A DNA stretch of 64,000 nt from Lama guanicoe. Taxonomy: Eukaryota. Below are positions 6,105 through 53,525 of this stretch, piece by piece; position 1 is the stretch's first letter; each line of letters starts with the position of its first letter. The stretch spans positions 651,285 to 715,284 of the forward strand of contig MU053934.1 of NCBI GenBank assembly GCA_013239625.1. Reading direction: 5' to 3'. A program made the position numbers and the translations under genes. The notes under the pieces were generated by a model. It did no database searches. It saw only the letters and a program-made list of their open reading frames with translations, and was not told the DNA's origin.

Positions 6105-6240
6105 GGAGGAGGGGTTCGCTCAGTGGTAGAGCGTGTGCTTAGCACGCACAATGTCCTGGCTTTAATCCCTGGTACTCCACTAAAAATAAGAACTGTATAA
6201 ACCTAATTATCTCCCCCCGCGAAAAATAAAAGTGAGTAAA
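6105..6240 (+). mobile_element. tRNA-Ala-derived SINE (camelid Vic-1-like)
   Basis: tRNA-like head GCTCAGTGGTAGAGCGTGTGCTTAGCACGCAC with degenerate B box, AAACCTAATTATCTCCCCC tail, A-rich end; TSD TAAAAACCACA(T/G)AG at 6091-6104 and 6241-6254. Confidence 0.9.
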
Positions 6241-25649: not shown

Positions 25650-26443
25650 GAAGCAGCCCAAGAACCATATGGACAGCAGTGAGAGTAAGCCCAGTTCAAA
25701 AATACACCAAATATTTTTGTAAGTGCCCACCAGGTGCTGGGCACTGAGCTGGGCTCGAGGCTCCCAGCAGGCTCTGGTCAGTTTAAGGAGGCAGATAGCC
25801 AGGAAAGCAGCCAGCTTGCCGGCAGCAAGATAAGCAGGCGTGGGCCCCACAGCTCAAGCAGAGACTGCAGGGCAAGTCCCCAGAGGGAGAGAGTTTGGTA
25901 GGAACTTCTGCAGGGCCCTCCCCATTCCCACCCCCACTAAATGGTCTGTTTATTCTCCTGTCTGCTGCCTCTGTGCCGCAGGTGGGGGCATGTGCTTTTT
26001 TTTTTCTTTCTTTCGTTTTAAATTTGTCCTTGTGTGTCCAACCTCTGTTTGCAAACCTGCTGGAGGGAGAGAGCACATGCCAAATGCATTTGCACTTTGT
26101 TTGTTGCAGGTGAGTGGCTTTTAGGGTCTGACTAAGGAGGTTACCTGATTGTTCAGGATTTGAAAGACTCAAGTCAGCCCCAGGCATCCATCTGACTGAG
26201 TGGGACAATGAGAGGTGGGGCGCAAACCATTCCTGGGAGCTGCATCTGGTAGCTGGGGACCTGATTTCAGGACCAGCTCTGCTCAGTACTTGAAGACCAG
26301 TGCAGAAAATTAAAAAAGCTTCACAGGATGCATTTTGCACCCCCTTGCCCCCATTCATGATAGAAATCACTTTCTGGAGTCTGATGGGTTGTGAGGATGC
26401 CTATTCTTACAACAAATTACCTACTTTATTGGCTGGAAAAATC
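25650..26443 (+). repeat. direct repeat copy 1 (~794 bp of host sequence)
   Basis: Aligns end to end with 27650-28453; ends exactly at the TG of the LTR at 26444. Confidence 0.95.
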
Positions 26444-27649
26444 TGTTACTCAAAAAGGGGAAGAAAAAAGACCTCAGTCCTTGTCTTACCCAAAAGATAG
26501 GAATCCAGAAGGGTGATGGTGCATTGCATAGGAAAAGATTTTAAAGGATTTATTCAGCAAACAGAAAATGTTAGAGCAGGCAGATAGCTAGATATGAGTG
26601 GAGAAAGGGGGACACAGTTCAAAGGGCAAGGAATTGGGCAGAAAGGAGGGGCACAGGCGAAATACAGGAAACTACACATCATTTAAGCACTAGGGGCCCC
26701 TGGGCAGAGAAAGAAAAGCAGAAACCTCTGGGCTGATAAGCGGTCACCCATTTTGAGGGTGATGAGAGGCCTGGAGGCCTAAAAGAAAGGTGGGAAAAGG
26801 CAGGACTCTCCAGTGTCCAAAAGTAACCTCTTGCTCATTATGCCCTCATTTCAATAAAATTAGCCTTGCTGATTAGAAGTACCCATAATGCACTGACACC
26901 ATGACACTTCCTATCCAGACTAAATAAGGACAAAAACCCCTCCTCCCTTGGGAAGGTGGAGTTGGGATGAAAATTAGGGACCCTAAACCCTTCCCTCCCC
27001 AATGAATATTTCACCCATTCATTTTAAAACCCTACATAACCAACTCACCAAAGAAACTCAGCGCAGCTTCTCCCAGGAGCCTGTCTGCTGTCGCCTTGAG
27101 AGTGTACTATCTGTCCCTTAATAAGTCCCCACTCTACTTTCTTAACCTCTGCATCTCGTCTCTGAATTCCTTCTGGGACGGGACAAGAACCTGGACACCA
27201 GGTACATCTACCAGCTACCAAAGTACACCTTCAAGAACGGGAGGCGGCCTGTTCCAAGGGCGGAAAAGCGGCGGCCTGCCTTTGCCCCTTCTCTTGTACC
27301 CTCGCTTAGAGGTGGTCTTTCGAATGATTGACGGCTCTTGCCCCTGGAATGCTTAGTCATGTTCGTCCCCTTTGCGCATGTCCTTACCCATAATGCACAT
27401 AGAAAAACCCAAGGAGGGGGCCCTAAACCGCAATGCTAATTATATGACAATGAGCACTGGGTCACTTCCGGTTAGGTCCTCCTCGCCATGGCGCGGTAGC
27501 GGCTGTCGGGGTCTCACGGGTTTCTTCTGGCACTCATTTAGAGGAAGCAAAGTCTCTCTGCTGAAGGCGGTTATACCACCGTCTTCTGGACCGTCTTCCT
27601 TCTCCTCCATCTATCAGCCCGGTGCCCCGACTTATCCAACTACCTGACA
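26444..27649 (-). mobile_element. outer ERV1-type solo LTR (parts 26444-26568 and 27221-27649)
   Basis: TGTTAC...TGACA termini; minus-strand AATAAA (TTTATT at 26549-26554); reads continuously TTTATTCAGCAAACAGAAAA|AAGTACACC once the inner LTR is removed. Confidence 0.8.
26569..27220 (+). mobile_element. inner ERV1-type solo LTR nested antisense in the outer LTR
   Basis: Starts TGTTAGAGCAGGCAGATAGCTAGATATGAG; R/U5-like GAGAGTGTACT...AATAAG...CTGAATTCCTTC...GACAAGAACCTGGAC...CA; TSD not cleanly resolved. Confidence 0.8.
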
Positions 27650-28453
27650 GAAGCGGCCCAAGAACCATATGGACAGCAGCGAGGGTAAGTCCAGTTCAGA
27701 AATACACCAAATATTTTTGTAAGTGCCCACCAGGTGCTGGGCACTGAGCTGGGCTCGAGGCTCCCAGCAGGCTCTGGTCAGTTTAAGGAGGCAGATAGCC
27801 AGGAAAGCAGCCAGCTTGCCGGCAGCAAGATAAGCAGGCGTGGGCCCCACAGCTCAAGCAGAGACTGCAGGGCAAGTCCCCAGAGGGGGAGAGTTTGGTA
27901 GGAACTTCTGCAGGGCCCTCCCCATTCCCACCCCCACTAAATGGTCTGTTTATTCTCTGTCTGCTGCCTCTGTGCCCCGGCAGGGTAAGGGGGTGGATAT
28001 GAGCTTTTTGTTTTTCTTTTTGCTTTTTAAATTTGTCCTTGTGTGTCCAACCTCTGTTTGCAAACCTGCTGGAGGGAGAGAGCACATGCCAAATGCATTT
28101 GCACTTTGTTTGTTGCAGGTGAGTGGCTTTTAGGGTCTGACTAAGGAGGTTACCTGATTGTTCAGGATTTGAAAGACTCAAGTCAGCCCCAGGCATCCAT
28201 CTGACTGAGTGGGACAATGAGAGGTGGGGCGCAAACCATTCCTGGGAGCTGCATCTGGAGCTGGAGACCTGATTTCAGGACCAGCTCTGCTCAGTACTTG
28301 AAGACCCACGCAGAAATATAAGAAGGGTTCAGAGGATGCATTCTGCACTCCCCCACCCCCATTCATGATAGAAATCACTTTCTGGAGTCTAATGGGGTAT
28401 GAGGAGGCCTATTCTTACTACTTAAATTACCTACCTTGTTGGATAGAAGAGTC
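27650..28453 (+). repeat. direct repeat copy 2 (~804 bp of host sequence)
   Basis: Begins at the base after the LTR terminal CA (27649); aligns with 25650-26443. Confidence 0.95.
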
Positions 28454-28739
28454 TAGATGAGAAACTTGGCTTTGCTTTTTAGCCATTAAAAATACTAATT
28501 CCCAAGAATATTTCAGTGGTACCAATGTGATACTGAAACTAGATCTGGGACTGTAACTCGAAGTTAAATGGGCCACAGTTATCTCACCCTGGGTCCCAGA
28601 ACTTGGACAGGGAACACGTCTCTAAGATTTAGTTTTCTTATCTATAAAATGAAGAGTTGGTCTAAATAATCACTAAGCCCCTGCCAGCTTTGCCATTTTA
28701 AGCTATAAATAGATTCATAATGACAAGGACTCAAGGATA

Positions 28740-28880
28740 CCTAAAACTAACTGTGCATCTGGAGCATGTGAGGAGTGCGTTAAAAATAAAGATGTTCTGA
28801 TCCCACCCTGGAGAGTCTGATTCTCCAGGTCTAGGTGAGGGCCTAGAAATATGTATTTCTAATAGGGGATTCTGCAAAGC
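28740..28880. mobile_element. MER5-type fragment
   Basis: CCCACCCTGGAGAGTCTGATTCTCCAGGTCTAGGTGAGGGCCTAGAAATATGTATTTCTAA. Confidence 0.65.
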
Positions 28881-29411
28881 CTGTCCTCAGCCTGCCTGGC
28901 CCTTTAGAAGCCCCAGAAGTTCTAAAAGCCTTGTGCAACCAGCCCAGATCGGGCTCTTTTTAAAAGGTCTCGTTGGATAAAAATGCTGACACCTCTCTAT
29001 ACCCCTCACTCTCATCCTGGATTCTGGGTCTTGAAATTAGCCTATCTCTGTCTACCAGACTGCGTTATTCAAACTCATTTTGAGGGCACCAGGGAGAAAT
29101 CTTTGCATTTTGCATTTTTTGATTCCCTTATAATTAGAATACAGTTAGACCCTCCTACCGGGTTAGATTAGCCAAAGAAGCTTTAGGAAGGGGATAAAAA
29201 TCTCCAACTCTGACTTGACTCACCCTGTGATGCTGGACTAGGAACTTAGCCTGCTTCCAGGGTTTCCCACTATGGACAATGCCCTGGCATTGTGCTGGCC
29301 TGTCACACATGTCACATGCCGCTGGCAGAATTTTTTTTTAAAGCATTACAAATGCCTTGAGGATTAATAAGGTGCCTGGGAAAATGGCAGGTTCTAAAAC
29401 TGTGCTGTTTG

Positions 29412-30054
29412 TGATACAGGAAAAAAAATATGGCGCAAGAGGATGGCTGTGTCCCAGGTCTCAGTTGAGTCTCTGGGACGTGCCCCACCAAGTGTGAGTC
29501 CTTGGCTTCGTGCAGGACAGAATTCAAGAGCGAGCCACAGTTGAGTAAAAGTAGATTTATTAGGGAGATACATATTCCATAGACAGAATGCAGGCTGTCT
29601 CAGAAGGCAAAAGAAAGGCCACAAGGCATGGGGGTTGGGTGCTCAGCTTAAAGTAGAAGTAGACACACACTCCACAGACAGAGTGCGGGCTGTCTCACTC
29701 AGAAGGGAGAGTGGCCACGAGGTGCAATGTTGCTAGTTTTTATGAGCTTCATATGTTAACAAGATTATTCCAACTGTTTTGGGGAAGGGGCTTGGATGCC
29801 CAGGAATTGGGCCACCGCCTACTTTGTGACCTTTTGTGGTTAGCCTCAGAATGGTCATGGCGCCTATGAGAGTGCCATTTATCATGCTAAAATATTACAA
29901 TGAGCATAAAATGAAGCTCAAGGTCTGCTGGGAGTCAAATCTCCCACAATTTCGGGCCTCAAGGTCTACTGGGAGTTGAATCTCTGCCACCTTGATGCTA
30001 ATTGCTGTGTTATGCCTTGAATGGCCATGCCCTGCGCCCTTCCTTCCTGTCTCA
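29412..30054 (-). mobile_element. ERV1-type solo LTR (artiodactyl MER41-like)
   Basis: Reverse start TGAGACAGGAAGGAAGGGCGCAGGGC; TG/CA ends; 4-bp TSD TTTG at 29408-29411 and 30055-30058; minus-strand AATAAA near 29556-29561; short internal duplications. Confidence 0.9.
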
Positions 30055-48395: not shown

Positions 48396-48518
48396 AGGGG
48401 GGAGGTATAGCTCAAGTGGTAGAGTTTCTGCTTAGCATGCGCAAAGTCCTGGGTTCAATCCCCAGTACCTTCACTAAAAATAAATAAACTTAATTATCTA
48501 CCCCCAAAATAAAATAAA
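48396..48518 (+). mobile_element. tRNA-Ala-derived SINE (camelid Vic-1-like)
   Basis: TATAGCTCAAGTGGTAGAG (A box)...CTTAGCATG...GGGTTCAATCCCC (B box); TAATTATCTACCCCC tail; 13-bp TSD AAAAAATGCTCCA at 48383-48395 and 48519-48531. Confidence 0.92.
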
Positions 48519-51739: not shown

Positions 51740-53525
51740 AGGGTAAAATAGTTGCTTACATTAAACATGAGTTCTCTGTCTCTCTTTTTCAACTTTCCTT
51801 TCCCCAGAAGCAATAACTTTAATTTCTTTTAGTTTATAATTTTGATATTTATTTCTCTGTTTCTAAATGACAAGCTTGTATTGCATCTTGTTGCTTTGTC
51901 TCAGTTTTAGACATTATCTAAGAATTCTCATTGGTTCTACCATATATACATATTCTTGCTATCTTCCTGTTAGGATTCCTCCTAACAATCACAATTTTGG
52001 TTAGATCAATATTCTATGTTTGTATTATCATGCTATGTAAATGGTATTCACATCTGAGCAATGTAGTAAATTCTGATCACTTTTCCTTTTCCAAATAACT
52101 TTTGCTTTCTCAAGACCTGTTGCTTGTTTTCCTTTTGCTTACCTATCTATGTTCTTATCTGTAATTCAATCCCTCAATCTTCTCCGTTTATCTAAATCTC
52201 CTCTTTTCTCAAGATGTACAGACAGCTTAGGAAATTTATGTCTATTTTTATCTTTGTAAGTGATACTCTGAGCCTTCAAGCCTGATCCATCCTTGTAGCA
52301 TGACAGCCCTTTTGCGCTCAAGGCAAAGCCCTCACCCAGGAGCCAGCGATTCTGGGGATTCTTTTCTTCTCTCTCCTGGGGACTATCTCCTGTTGCTGAT
52401 AAACCGTATCATCTTTGTTGGATTACTCCATCTATCTTGCGGGTCAATTCTCCACTAGCTTCTCTAGAAAGGAGTCACTGAAGGACTTTTAAAAACAAAA
52501 AAGACTTTGGATATCTGAAAAATGATTAATTCTACACTAATTTTTGGTTGAGAGTTTAGCTAAGTATAGGAACCTAGCTTGGAAATAAATTTCCTTATGA
52601 ATTTTAAAGGCATCTTCCCTACACCACCTTTTAGTAACCAGTGTTGCTGTTAAGAAGGCTGAGACTTTTTGATTGCTCATTCTTCGGGTGTGTGCATGTT
52701 TGCACTTTCTTTTATGTCACTTGATTTGTGTTTGTTTTCATCCATTGTGCTCAGTATTCAGTAAATTTTCAAATCTGGAAAATCATATTATTTTTGTATA
52801 TTCTGAAATTATTTTCTGATTTCTCCCCTTAATTTTCGTTGTTCTCTTTCTCCACAACCTCTGTTATGTACTTAAACATCTTTACACCTTTTTCCCCTAA
52901 TGTCTTCTCAAAAGATGCTTTTAGAAAGAAATTGTATATGCCAGCATTCTGGAACTAGGAAAGAGATTGTGCCTGAGATTTTCAACATCTGAAATGCATA
53001 TGTTCACTTAATCTTCTAATATTTAGTTGGGTAACCCTGACCTTAGATAGAACTGATGTGTCCAATACTATAGATTTTCTATTTTATCTTATCAAGAGAA
53101 ACAAACCCCTTGACCTTTTCAAGGTAGAAAGTAATCACTCAACCACGTGGTGTGGGGAAGGTGAGCTGTACATCTGAAAACGTAAGTGGATTTTTCACAA
53201 TCTTACTTTGATTTCCTTGTCTCTTACTTGTAGAGTATCCAGTTACACGAATCTGAGCCTCCTGAGGATTCTGGTATCCAAGTCAGGCTGCTTCTCAGAT
53301 TTCCGTACTTCTAGCAGATGCATTGGCTTCTCAGATCGGGTAAGTCATTTGACAAGTATTCATGTGTCCTCCAGCTTTCGGAAATGTTTTGCTCCCTTTT
53401 GCTCGCCATTGTTTTGAGTGTATGCCTTAAAATGAAATACTGTAGCTGTAAGTTTAGTGGAGTTTCAACGGAGAGGAAAATAGATGTGTGTGAGAGAGGA
53501 GAAGAGAGACCTACTGTTTTTAATT
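51740..53525 (-). mobile_element. degraded old L1 (L1ME-type)
   Basis: Long T-rich reverse L1 remnant (GAGAGTTTAGCTAAGTATAGGAACCTAGCTTGGAAATAAATTTCC; TTTCAAATCTGGAAAATCAT). Confidence 0.6.

Follow-up and report, generated by a model that had tools for sequence, protein, structure and literature searches.

How a solo LTR can come to lie between two copies of about 0.8 kb of host DNA is the question raised by positions 25650 to 28453 of the window, by which we mean the whole stretch of 64,000 nucleotides of Lama guanicoe DNA that was analysed. Self-comparison of the window showed that its sole long recent repeat was 25650-26444 versus 27650-28454, and that the two copies shared 93.4% identity over 808 columns. 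The 1206 bases separating the copies consisted of two LTRs, one nested in the other. The parts of the locus were as follows.

25650..26443, plus strand: copy 1 of the duplicated host segment (794 bp), from self-comparison of the window
26444..27649, minus strand: outer solo LTR of about 550 bp, split into 26444-26568 and 27220-27649, with both termini intact
26569..27219, plus strand: inner solo LTR, younger and nested in the outer LTR, TSD AAAA/AAAG
27650..28453, plus strand: copy 2 of the duplicated host segment (804 bp), from self-comparison and contigs in DNA run X7

The ends of the outer LTR were fixed by 28 relatives, with the terminal TG at 26444 and the terminal CA at 27649, and its minus orientation was suggested by a minus-strand AATAAA near 26550. 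The direct repeat adjoined both of these true termini. The original prediction of a direct duplication of about 0.8 kb abutting the LTR on both sides was thus confirmed, with breakpoints on the termini set by the family members. Its statement that the outer LTR lacks a 4-bp TSD agreed with the flanking 4-mers, AATC and GAAG. It had also counted three other LTRs of the class that we take to be named ERV1, all with clean 4-bp TSDs; this stood for one element (29412-30054, TTTG/TTTG), while the TSD of the inner LTR was imperfect and a crude repeat library gave no others. The element at 29412-30054 was LTR-like, with TG...CA ends and an exact 4-bp TSD, and lay 1 kb to the right of copy 2, within the intron described below. 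Most of the 28 outer-LTR relatives showed a 4-base overlap at the nesting point of the inner LTR. The starts of the two copies were exactly 2000 bases apart (794 + 1206), which looks coincidental.

The repeated unit was host DNA lying outside the element, and it was absent from the flanks of 79 family loci. In its own genome, the unit was present only in these two copies and in two small contigs, which were copy 2 again (240/241 and 1050/1050 identical). Both small contigs ended about 48 bases into a block where the two copies are identical, as assembly contigs would if they broke at a real repeat.

Among the 24 sequencing runs listed, four that contain the sequence are recorded as RNA; three RNA runs (X15 and X16 of study P7, labelled reproductive system metagenome, and X19 of study P9) and one DNA run (X7) were compared here over 26444-29300. 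All four carried the LTR. In X7, one contig linked 26444 to the 33 bases that close copy 1, and a second, identical to the window over 27416-27729, passed from the LTR across its end into copy 2. The X7 contigs of the blocks where the copies are identical had depths of 18.4 and 17.7 and carried 0 and 1 other letters; copy-specific contigs had a depth of about 10. The doubled depth indicated that the identity of the blocks was not an assembler's copy, since two identical copies collapse there too. Both LTR junctions and the double block depth in this independent DNA run ruled out a simple assembly artefact, which the original prediction had already considered unlikely. Tandemly assembled alleles were ruled out by the divergence of 11-15% at the edges of the copies. 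Cover in X7 was little or none in most bins to the right of 28460, which proves nothing. Fourteen DNA runs (six studies, three organism labels) contained 0.89-0.94 of the words of 27221-29300; these were chosen because they contain this sequence, and one of them may be the source.

Comparison with the LTR families showed that the locus was exceptional. In the outer family, 3 or 4 of the 4 TSD letters matched at 21 of 28 loci and 2 or fewer at 3 of 28, and the termini were not found at the other 4. The TG...CA termini and the 4-bp TSDs of the family are ERV1-type traits. A flanking repeat abutting the termini was found at none of the 79 other loci of the two families (28 + 28 + 23), and 4 of these 79 had unrelated distant flank matches. 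The rate here was therefore 1 in 80 family loci, the one locus having been picked for its repeat. At another locus of the genome (L024, G000:C7577:5050-5723), the match of an inner-family LTR extended about 18 bases into outer-LTR sequence, which may reflect a separate insertion event that hit an outer-family LTR at nearly this place.

An integration-site matrix was built from 118 half-sites, which came from loci whose TSD was usable (39 of 52 in the outer family, 20 of 28 in the inner); at -2 the letter T, and at +6 the letter A, stood in 75% of them. With the letters of copy 1, the right-hand site of the outer LTR, which is the start of the segment (TG/GAAGCA), scored 6.6 bits and exceeded 96.6% of real sites. 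The score dropped with the G of copy 2 at +6 (1.36 versus 3.93 bits over positions 1-6). The left-hand site, which is the end of the segment, scored 0.9 bits and exceeded 23.7% of real sites and 89.9% of background. The junction at the segment start looks integrase-made when the letter of copy 1 is used at +6.

Alignment of the two copies showed that their differences were strongly clustered. Along copy 1, there were 5 substitutions in the first 50 bases (25650-25699), 1 in the next 257, 4 in 57 together with several gaps, 0 in 234, and 26 in 193. A smooth divergence gradient along the copies had been considered and was replaced by this mosaic. Three parts of the mosaic were distinguished.

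25700..25956 (partner 27700-27956), unstranded: homogenised block 1, 1 substitution in 257 bp
26016..26249 (partner 28025-28258), unstranded: homogenised block 2, 0 differences in 234 bp
26250..26443 (partner 28259-28453), unstranded: unconverted 3' edge, 26 substitutions in 193 columns, K2P 0.151

The two blocks together held 1 difference in 491 bp, between edges that were 11-15% diverged. When the 45 differences were permuted 100,000 times, the longest identical run averaged 74 bp and attained the 234 bp of the real copies once; the sum-of-squares clustering statistic was never attained. Blocks 1 and 2 are likely gene-conversion tracts. In such a process, non-crossover exchange between copies 2 kb apart would keep the interior alike in patches of 230-260 bp while the edges diverge by about 15%.

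The age of the duplication was estimated from the 3' edge, where the non-CpG K2P was 0.146 (191 sites, wide error). The outer LTR differed from its 28 best-matching members by a K2P of 0.131-0.199 (median 0.170), and the members were a median of 0.148 apart; the inner family was younger, with the corresponding medians at 0.139 and 0.118. The edge divergence fell within the spread of the family, so the duplication would be about as old as the outer insertion, with the same wide error. The core idea of the original prediction, that an LTR event created the duplication, is supported by the exact termini, by an edge divergence equal to the family age and by the independent DNA run. The ancestral state would have been a single copy of the segment without the LTR.

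Aberrant integration is the probable origin of this structure. Integrase would have attached the LTR end that today lies at 27649 to the segment start, and the other end would have been joined 800 bp further on, through host repair or a second, uncoupled strand transfer, leaving the segment on both sides. The provirus would then have collapsed to a solo LTR, into which the younger LTR inserted. At the left junction, the LTR shared only 1 base with the host, and both LTR ends were whole, at a divergence of 15% that blurs any homology; whole ends and one shared base fit two integrase-made ends as well.

The crossover route of the original prediction supposes instead that two normal insertions of the same subgroup and orientation, 800 bp apart on different alleles, recombined, so that the solo LTR is a hybrid and the duplication a side effect; the conversion and the later use of the LTR in RNA would have come afterwards just as under aberrant integration. 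It would explain the whole termini, the lack of filler and the homology of at most 1 base, and T stood at -2 at both of the outer LTR's sites, as in 75% of family half-sites; recombination routes to 'pseudo-TSDs' are also discussed in PMC5488345. However, the subfamily switch that had been proposed as its mark did not appear, as 10 columns were linked among 50 family members and the outer LTR agreed with a single subgroup at 9 of them, in a test that is blind to a crossover between LTRs of one subgroup. A correlation of -0.58 between the distances of the two LTR ends, taken as a candidate hybrid signal, came from pooling two search sets and vanished within each. The crossover also requires that two insertions of one subgroup lie within 800 bp of each other and co-segregate, and the left site matched the family pattern weakly. 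With no subfamily switch and with one junction fitting the site pattern of the family, aberrant integration is favoured, and the crossover is judged unlikely. It is extremely improbable that a tandem duplication came first and that the LTR inserted at its junction, or replaced it, by chance or repair. Tandem duplicates undergo conversion too, but insertion at the exact junction base without a TSD of its own would be needed, the edge divergence equals the family age, and the segment start fits the integration-site pattern.

For the identical blocks, the alternative to conversion is purifying selection on an enhancer in both copies. The RNA runs bear on this point, as their contigs carried 11-13 other letters in about 270 and must come from a related organism and not from the species of the window. 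The RNA-run organism differed from the window by about 2% in the right flank (16/792 in X16). If neutral blocks had last been homogenised before the split of the two organisms, the probability of seeing no more than 1 difference over their 491 bp would be P = 0.0006 at a rate of 2% and P = 0.044 at 1%, so the conversion was likely recent. Block 2 differed at only 1 of 181 bases in X19, as selection would predict, and constraint may add to the identity of this block. Block 1, however, differed by up to 5/179 between species, in a low-depth contig of X15 (depth 4) that may hold errors and that differed from both copies by 6/193 in all, though the two copies are identical over those 179 bases. 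A block-1 contig that differs from both copies, here a single one of low depth, is as concerted evolution would predict; block 2 is uninformative on this point. Selection would, moreover, have to reach near-ultraconserved constraint for 0 changes over 234 bp in both copies beside edges diverged by 15%. Selection without conversion is thus very unlikely, and gene conversion is retained as the likely reading of the blocks.

RNA contigs across the right-hand LTR junction showed that, in the related organism, the outer LTR forms part of a spliced transcript, with the following features.

27416..27684, plus strand: exon part covered by RNA, made up of outer LTR sequence in antisense and the first 35 bases of copy 2; runs X15, X16 and X19
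27685..27690, plus strand: splice donor in copy 2, AGG/GTAAGT, used in RNA runs
25685-25690: matching site in copy 1, AGA/GTAAGC, weaker
53234..53339, plus strand: next exon, first 29 bases from the RNA junction, 3' end predicted from GTAAGT at 53340

In X15, X16 and X19, contigs of depth about 50 ran from 27416, 27423 or 27444 to 27684, with a contig ending at exactly 27684 in all three runs. Behind this position, X16 and X19 had 29 identical loose letters, and X15 had 29 unplaced letters. The 29 loose letters matched 53234-53262 with 1 mismatch, and 100 shuffles gave 0 matches. Position 53234 was preceded by a pyrimidine tract and AG, and the region was single-copy in the genome. The intron was thus a plus-strand GT-AG intron of 25,549 bases, opposite in orientation to the outer LTR; the contigs show neither the start, the strand nor the level of the RNA, and the strand is taken from GT-AG. 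A processed DNA copy as the source of the junction was rejected, since the exon-2 region had one genome match and X7 was unspliced across the donor. To the right of the donor, RNA cover had a depth of 2-4.5. In X16, the depths at 27680 summed to 168, against 50 for the exon contig; a further short contig must therefore lie over the junction, and alternative downstream exons are possible. The RNA contigs crossed the junction of the LTR with copy 2 and that of the inner with the outer LTR, so both insertions would predate the split from the RNA organism.

Two of the five differences between the copies at the 5' edge fell in the donor, and two of the five were CpGs present in copy 2 only. The original prediction held that the duplication doubled any regulatory element within it; the analysis recovered a single splice donor, which the RNA uses in copy 2 and whose counterpart in copy 1 is weaker, and this does not show such a doubling. 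A conversion block starts 10 bases beyond the copy 2 donor. The edges of duplicates escape conversion anyway, so the closeness of this boundary to the donor is no evidence of selection.

Where the transcript begins was approached through the base composition of the outer LTR.

27220..27649, unstranded: CpG-rich part of the outer LTR, 430 bp, 23 CpG, observed/expected 0.74

This count of 23 compared with 0-18 in 50 whole family members, and with a mean of 7.1 and a maximum of 14 in the matched stretches of 28 members. The stretch also contained matches to what we take to be ETS, NRF1-like, YY1-like and GC-box motifs. Retention of the CpGs over a divergence of 15% suggests low germ-line methylation, and 27220-27649 is likely an unmethylated promoter. 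The transcript likely starts in the LTR, as judged from the sequence and the contigs. The CpG-rich end of the outer LTR would then stay unmethylated in the germ line and fire antisense, perhaps aided by read-through from the inner LTR.

A less likely but serious alternative is that the LTR stretch is an internal exon or sense read-through from the inner LTR, the CpG-rich outer LTR not being a promoter. RNA contigs covered 27099-27389 in all three runs, an AG followed a pyrimidine run near 27077, and a large CpG island lay about 46 kb upstream. The inner LTR is in sense orientation, and the canonical poly(A) hexamer, present in 25 of 28 members of its family, was missing from it. However, the CpG excess was confined to the outer piece (the inner LTR had an ordinary 6, versus 0-10 in its family), and no upstream loose end was found at the contig 5' ends among the loose ends listed. 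Each of the three RNA runs also showed a step in contig depth over 27390-27445, where it rose from 14-23 to 48-50, though this is only a weak hint.

Coding potential was assessed in the known part of the RNA. The frame from the ATG at 27488 was closed by stops, and the ATG at 27669 gave, read by eye, 12 codons across the splice junction. Pfam searches, which as partial screens can miss short exons, gave no match above the cut-off among 59 of the 71 frames listed in the window, among 150 and 149 frames of the first 100 kb downstream, or among 121 splice-flanked frames (from the best 150 of 256) to 300 kb downstream. No coding gene downstream of the exon at 53234 was found in these partial screens to 300 kb. 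The upstream 250 kb gave no match above the cut-off among 150, 128 and 99 frames, with one sub-threshold DUF3915, and a 310-aa upstream frame had no Atlas match. On these partial screens, the RNA probably codes for no protein or forms a long 5' leader.

Over about 600 kb around the locus (G000:C1972:401285-1015284), the partial screens gave no Pfam match above the cut-off, despite several CpG islands on the left. A large CpG island about 20 kb left of the window (L075:9000-10000 and L074:1-2000) had, by look, a minus-strand first exon with a donor; the LTR transcript points away from it. Rfam analysis of the window revealed only two tRNA-like matches, 6111-6179 and 48401-48473, in repeated segments, and these are likely SINE heads. 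Positions 1-87 of the window were a perfect 16-bp tandem repeat of 5.4 copies in CpG-rich DNA, with an assembly gap within 10 kb to the left; this CpG-rich DNA resembles what we take to be an L1 5' end.

The whole reading, in which one aberrant integration produced the duplication of about 800 bp, patches of it were later converted, and the LTR is linked to a likely non-coding transcript, is given somewhat better than an even chance. The duplication did not create the transcript, because a normal insertion at the same site also places the donor 35 bases behind the LTR. Its effect would be that the upstream flank and the segment were left uninterrupted as copy 1. A bolder reading makes the botched integration a non-disruptive promoter swap, in which the LTR took over a transcript through the copy 2 donor while copy 1 kept the ancestral element, and in which selection holds the structure against precise excision and halted conversion 10 bases short of the donor. 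This is distinctly unlikely; if true, the locus would document in nature how selection sets the limits of conversion within a target duplication.

The locus would widen the range of long retroviral target duplications, in length to about 800 bp and in age to an old insertion. The duplication survives although recombination between the copies would cleanly delete the LTR, and the link of this anomaly to a spliced RNA of a related species offers a testable reason for its survival. The raw identity of 93% understates the age of the duplication by about half, and loci of this kind may lead dating and presence/absence phylogenies astray. None of the three processes (long target duplication, conversion, promoter activity of LTRs) is new in itself; their combination, a long target duplication with conversion and a spliced LTR RNA, was not found in the open-access literature, as judged from listings.

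The closest likeness is to HERV-K (HML-2), for which PMC5488345 describes long TSDs of 13-450 bp, including TSDs of 111-450 bp, and a recombination route to pseudo-TSDs. There too, a solo LTR with whole termini is abutted by a long direct repeat of host DNA, and the same two explanations are debated. The repeat here is about 800 bp, whereas the scan in PMC5488345 ended at 500 bp; the family here has 4-bp TSDs, and the copies are up to 15% diverged with mosaic identity, against 0-3 mismatches there. PMC5041404 describes aberrant, one-ended HIV-1 and ASLV integrations that host enzymes complete, with duplications of hundreds to thousands of bp; the aberrant end is often truncated and usually shows short homology. 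A large host duplication beside the provirus and one integrase-made end are shared with the present locus, but here both ends are whole, and the event is old and in the germ line, with no drug or mutant induction. For non-allelic gene conversion between duplicates, a mean tract of 250 bp is given in 10.1101/135152; tracts of about 250 bp, with diverged parts escaping, are alike in both cases, whereas the exchange here is between the halves of a target duplication, across an LTR. For the transcript, ERVs are enriched at lincRNA starts (PMC3580499), and at FABP7 an antisense LTR2 uses a non-TE donor (PMC5134097). In both the FABP7 case and the present one, the LTR is read antisense, with a donor in adjacent host DNA and a distant exon; here, in contrast, the donor lies within the duplicated target.
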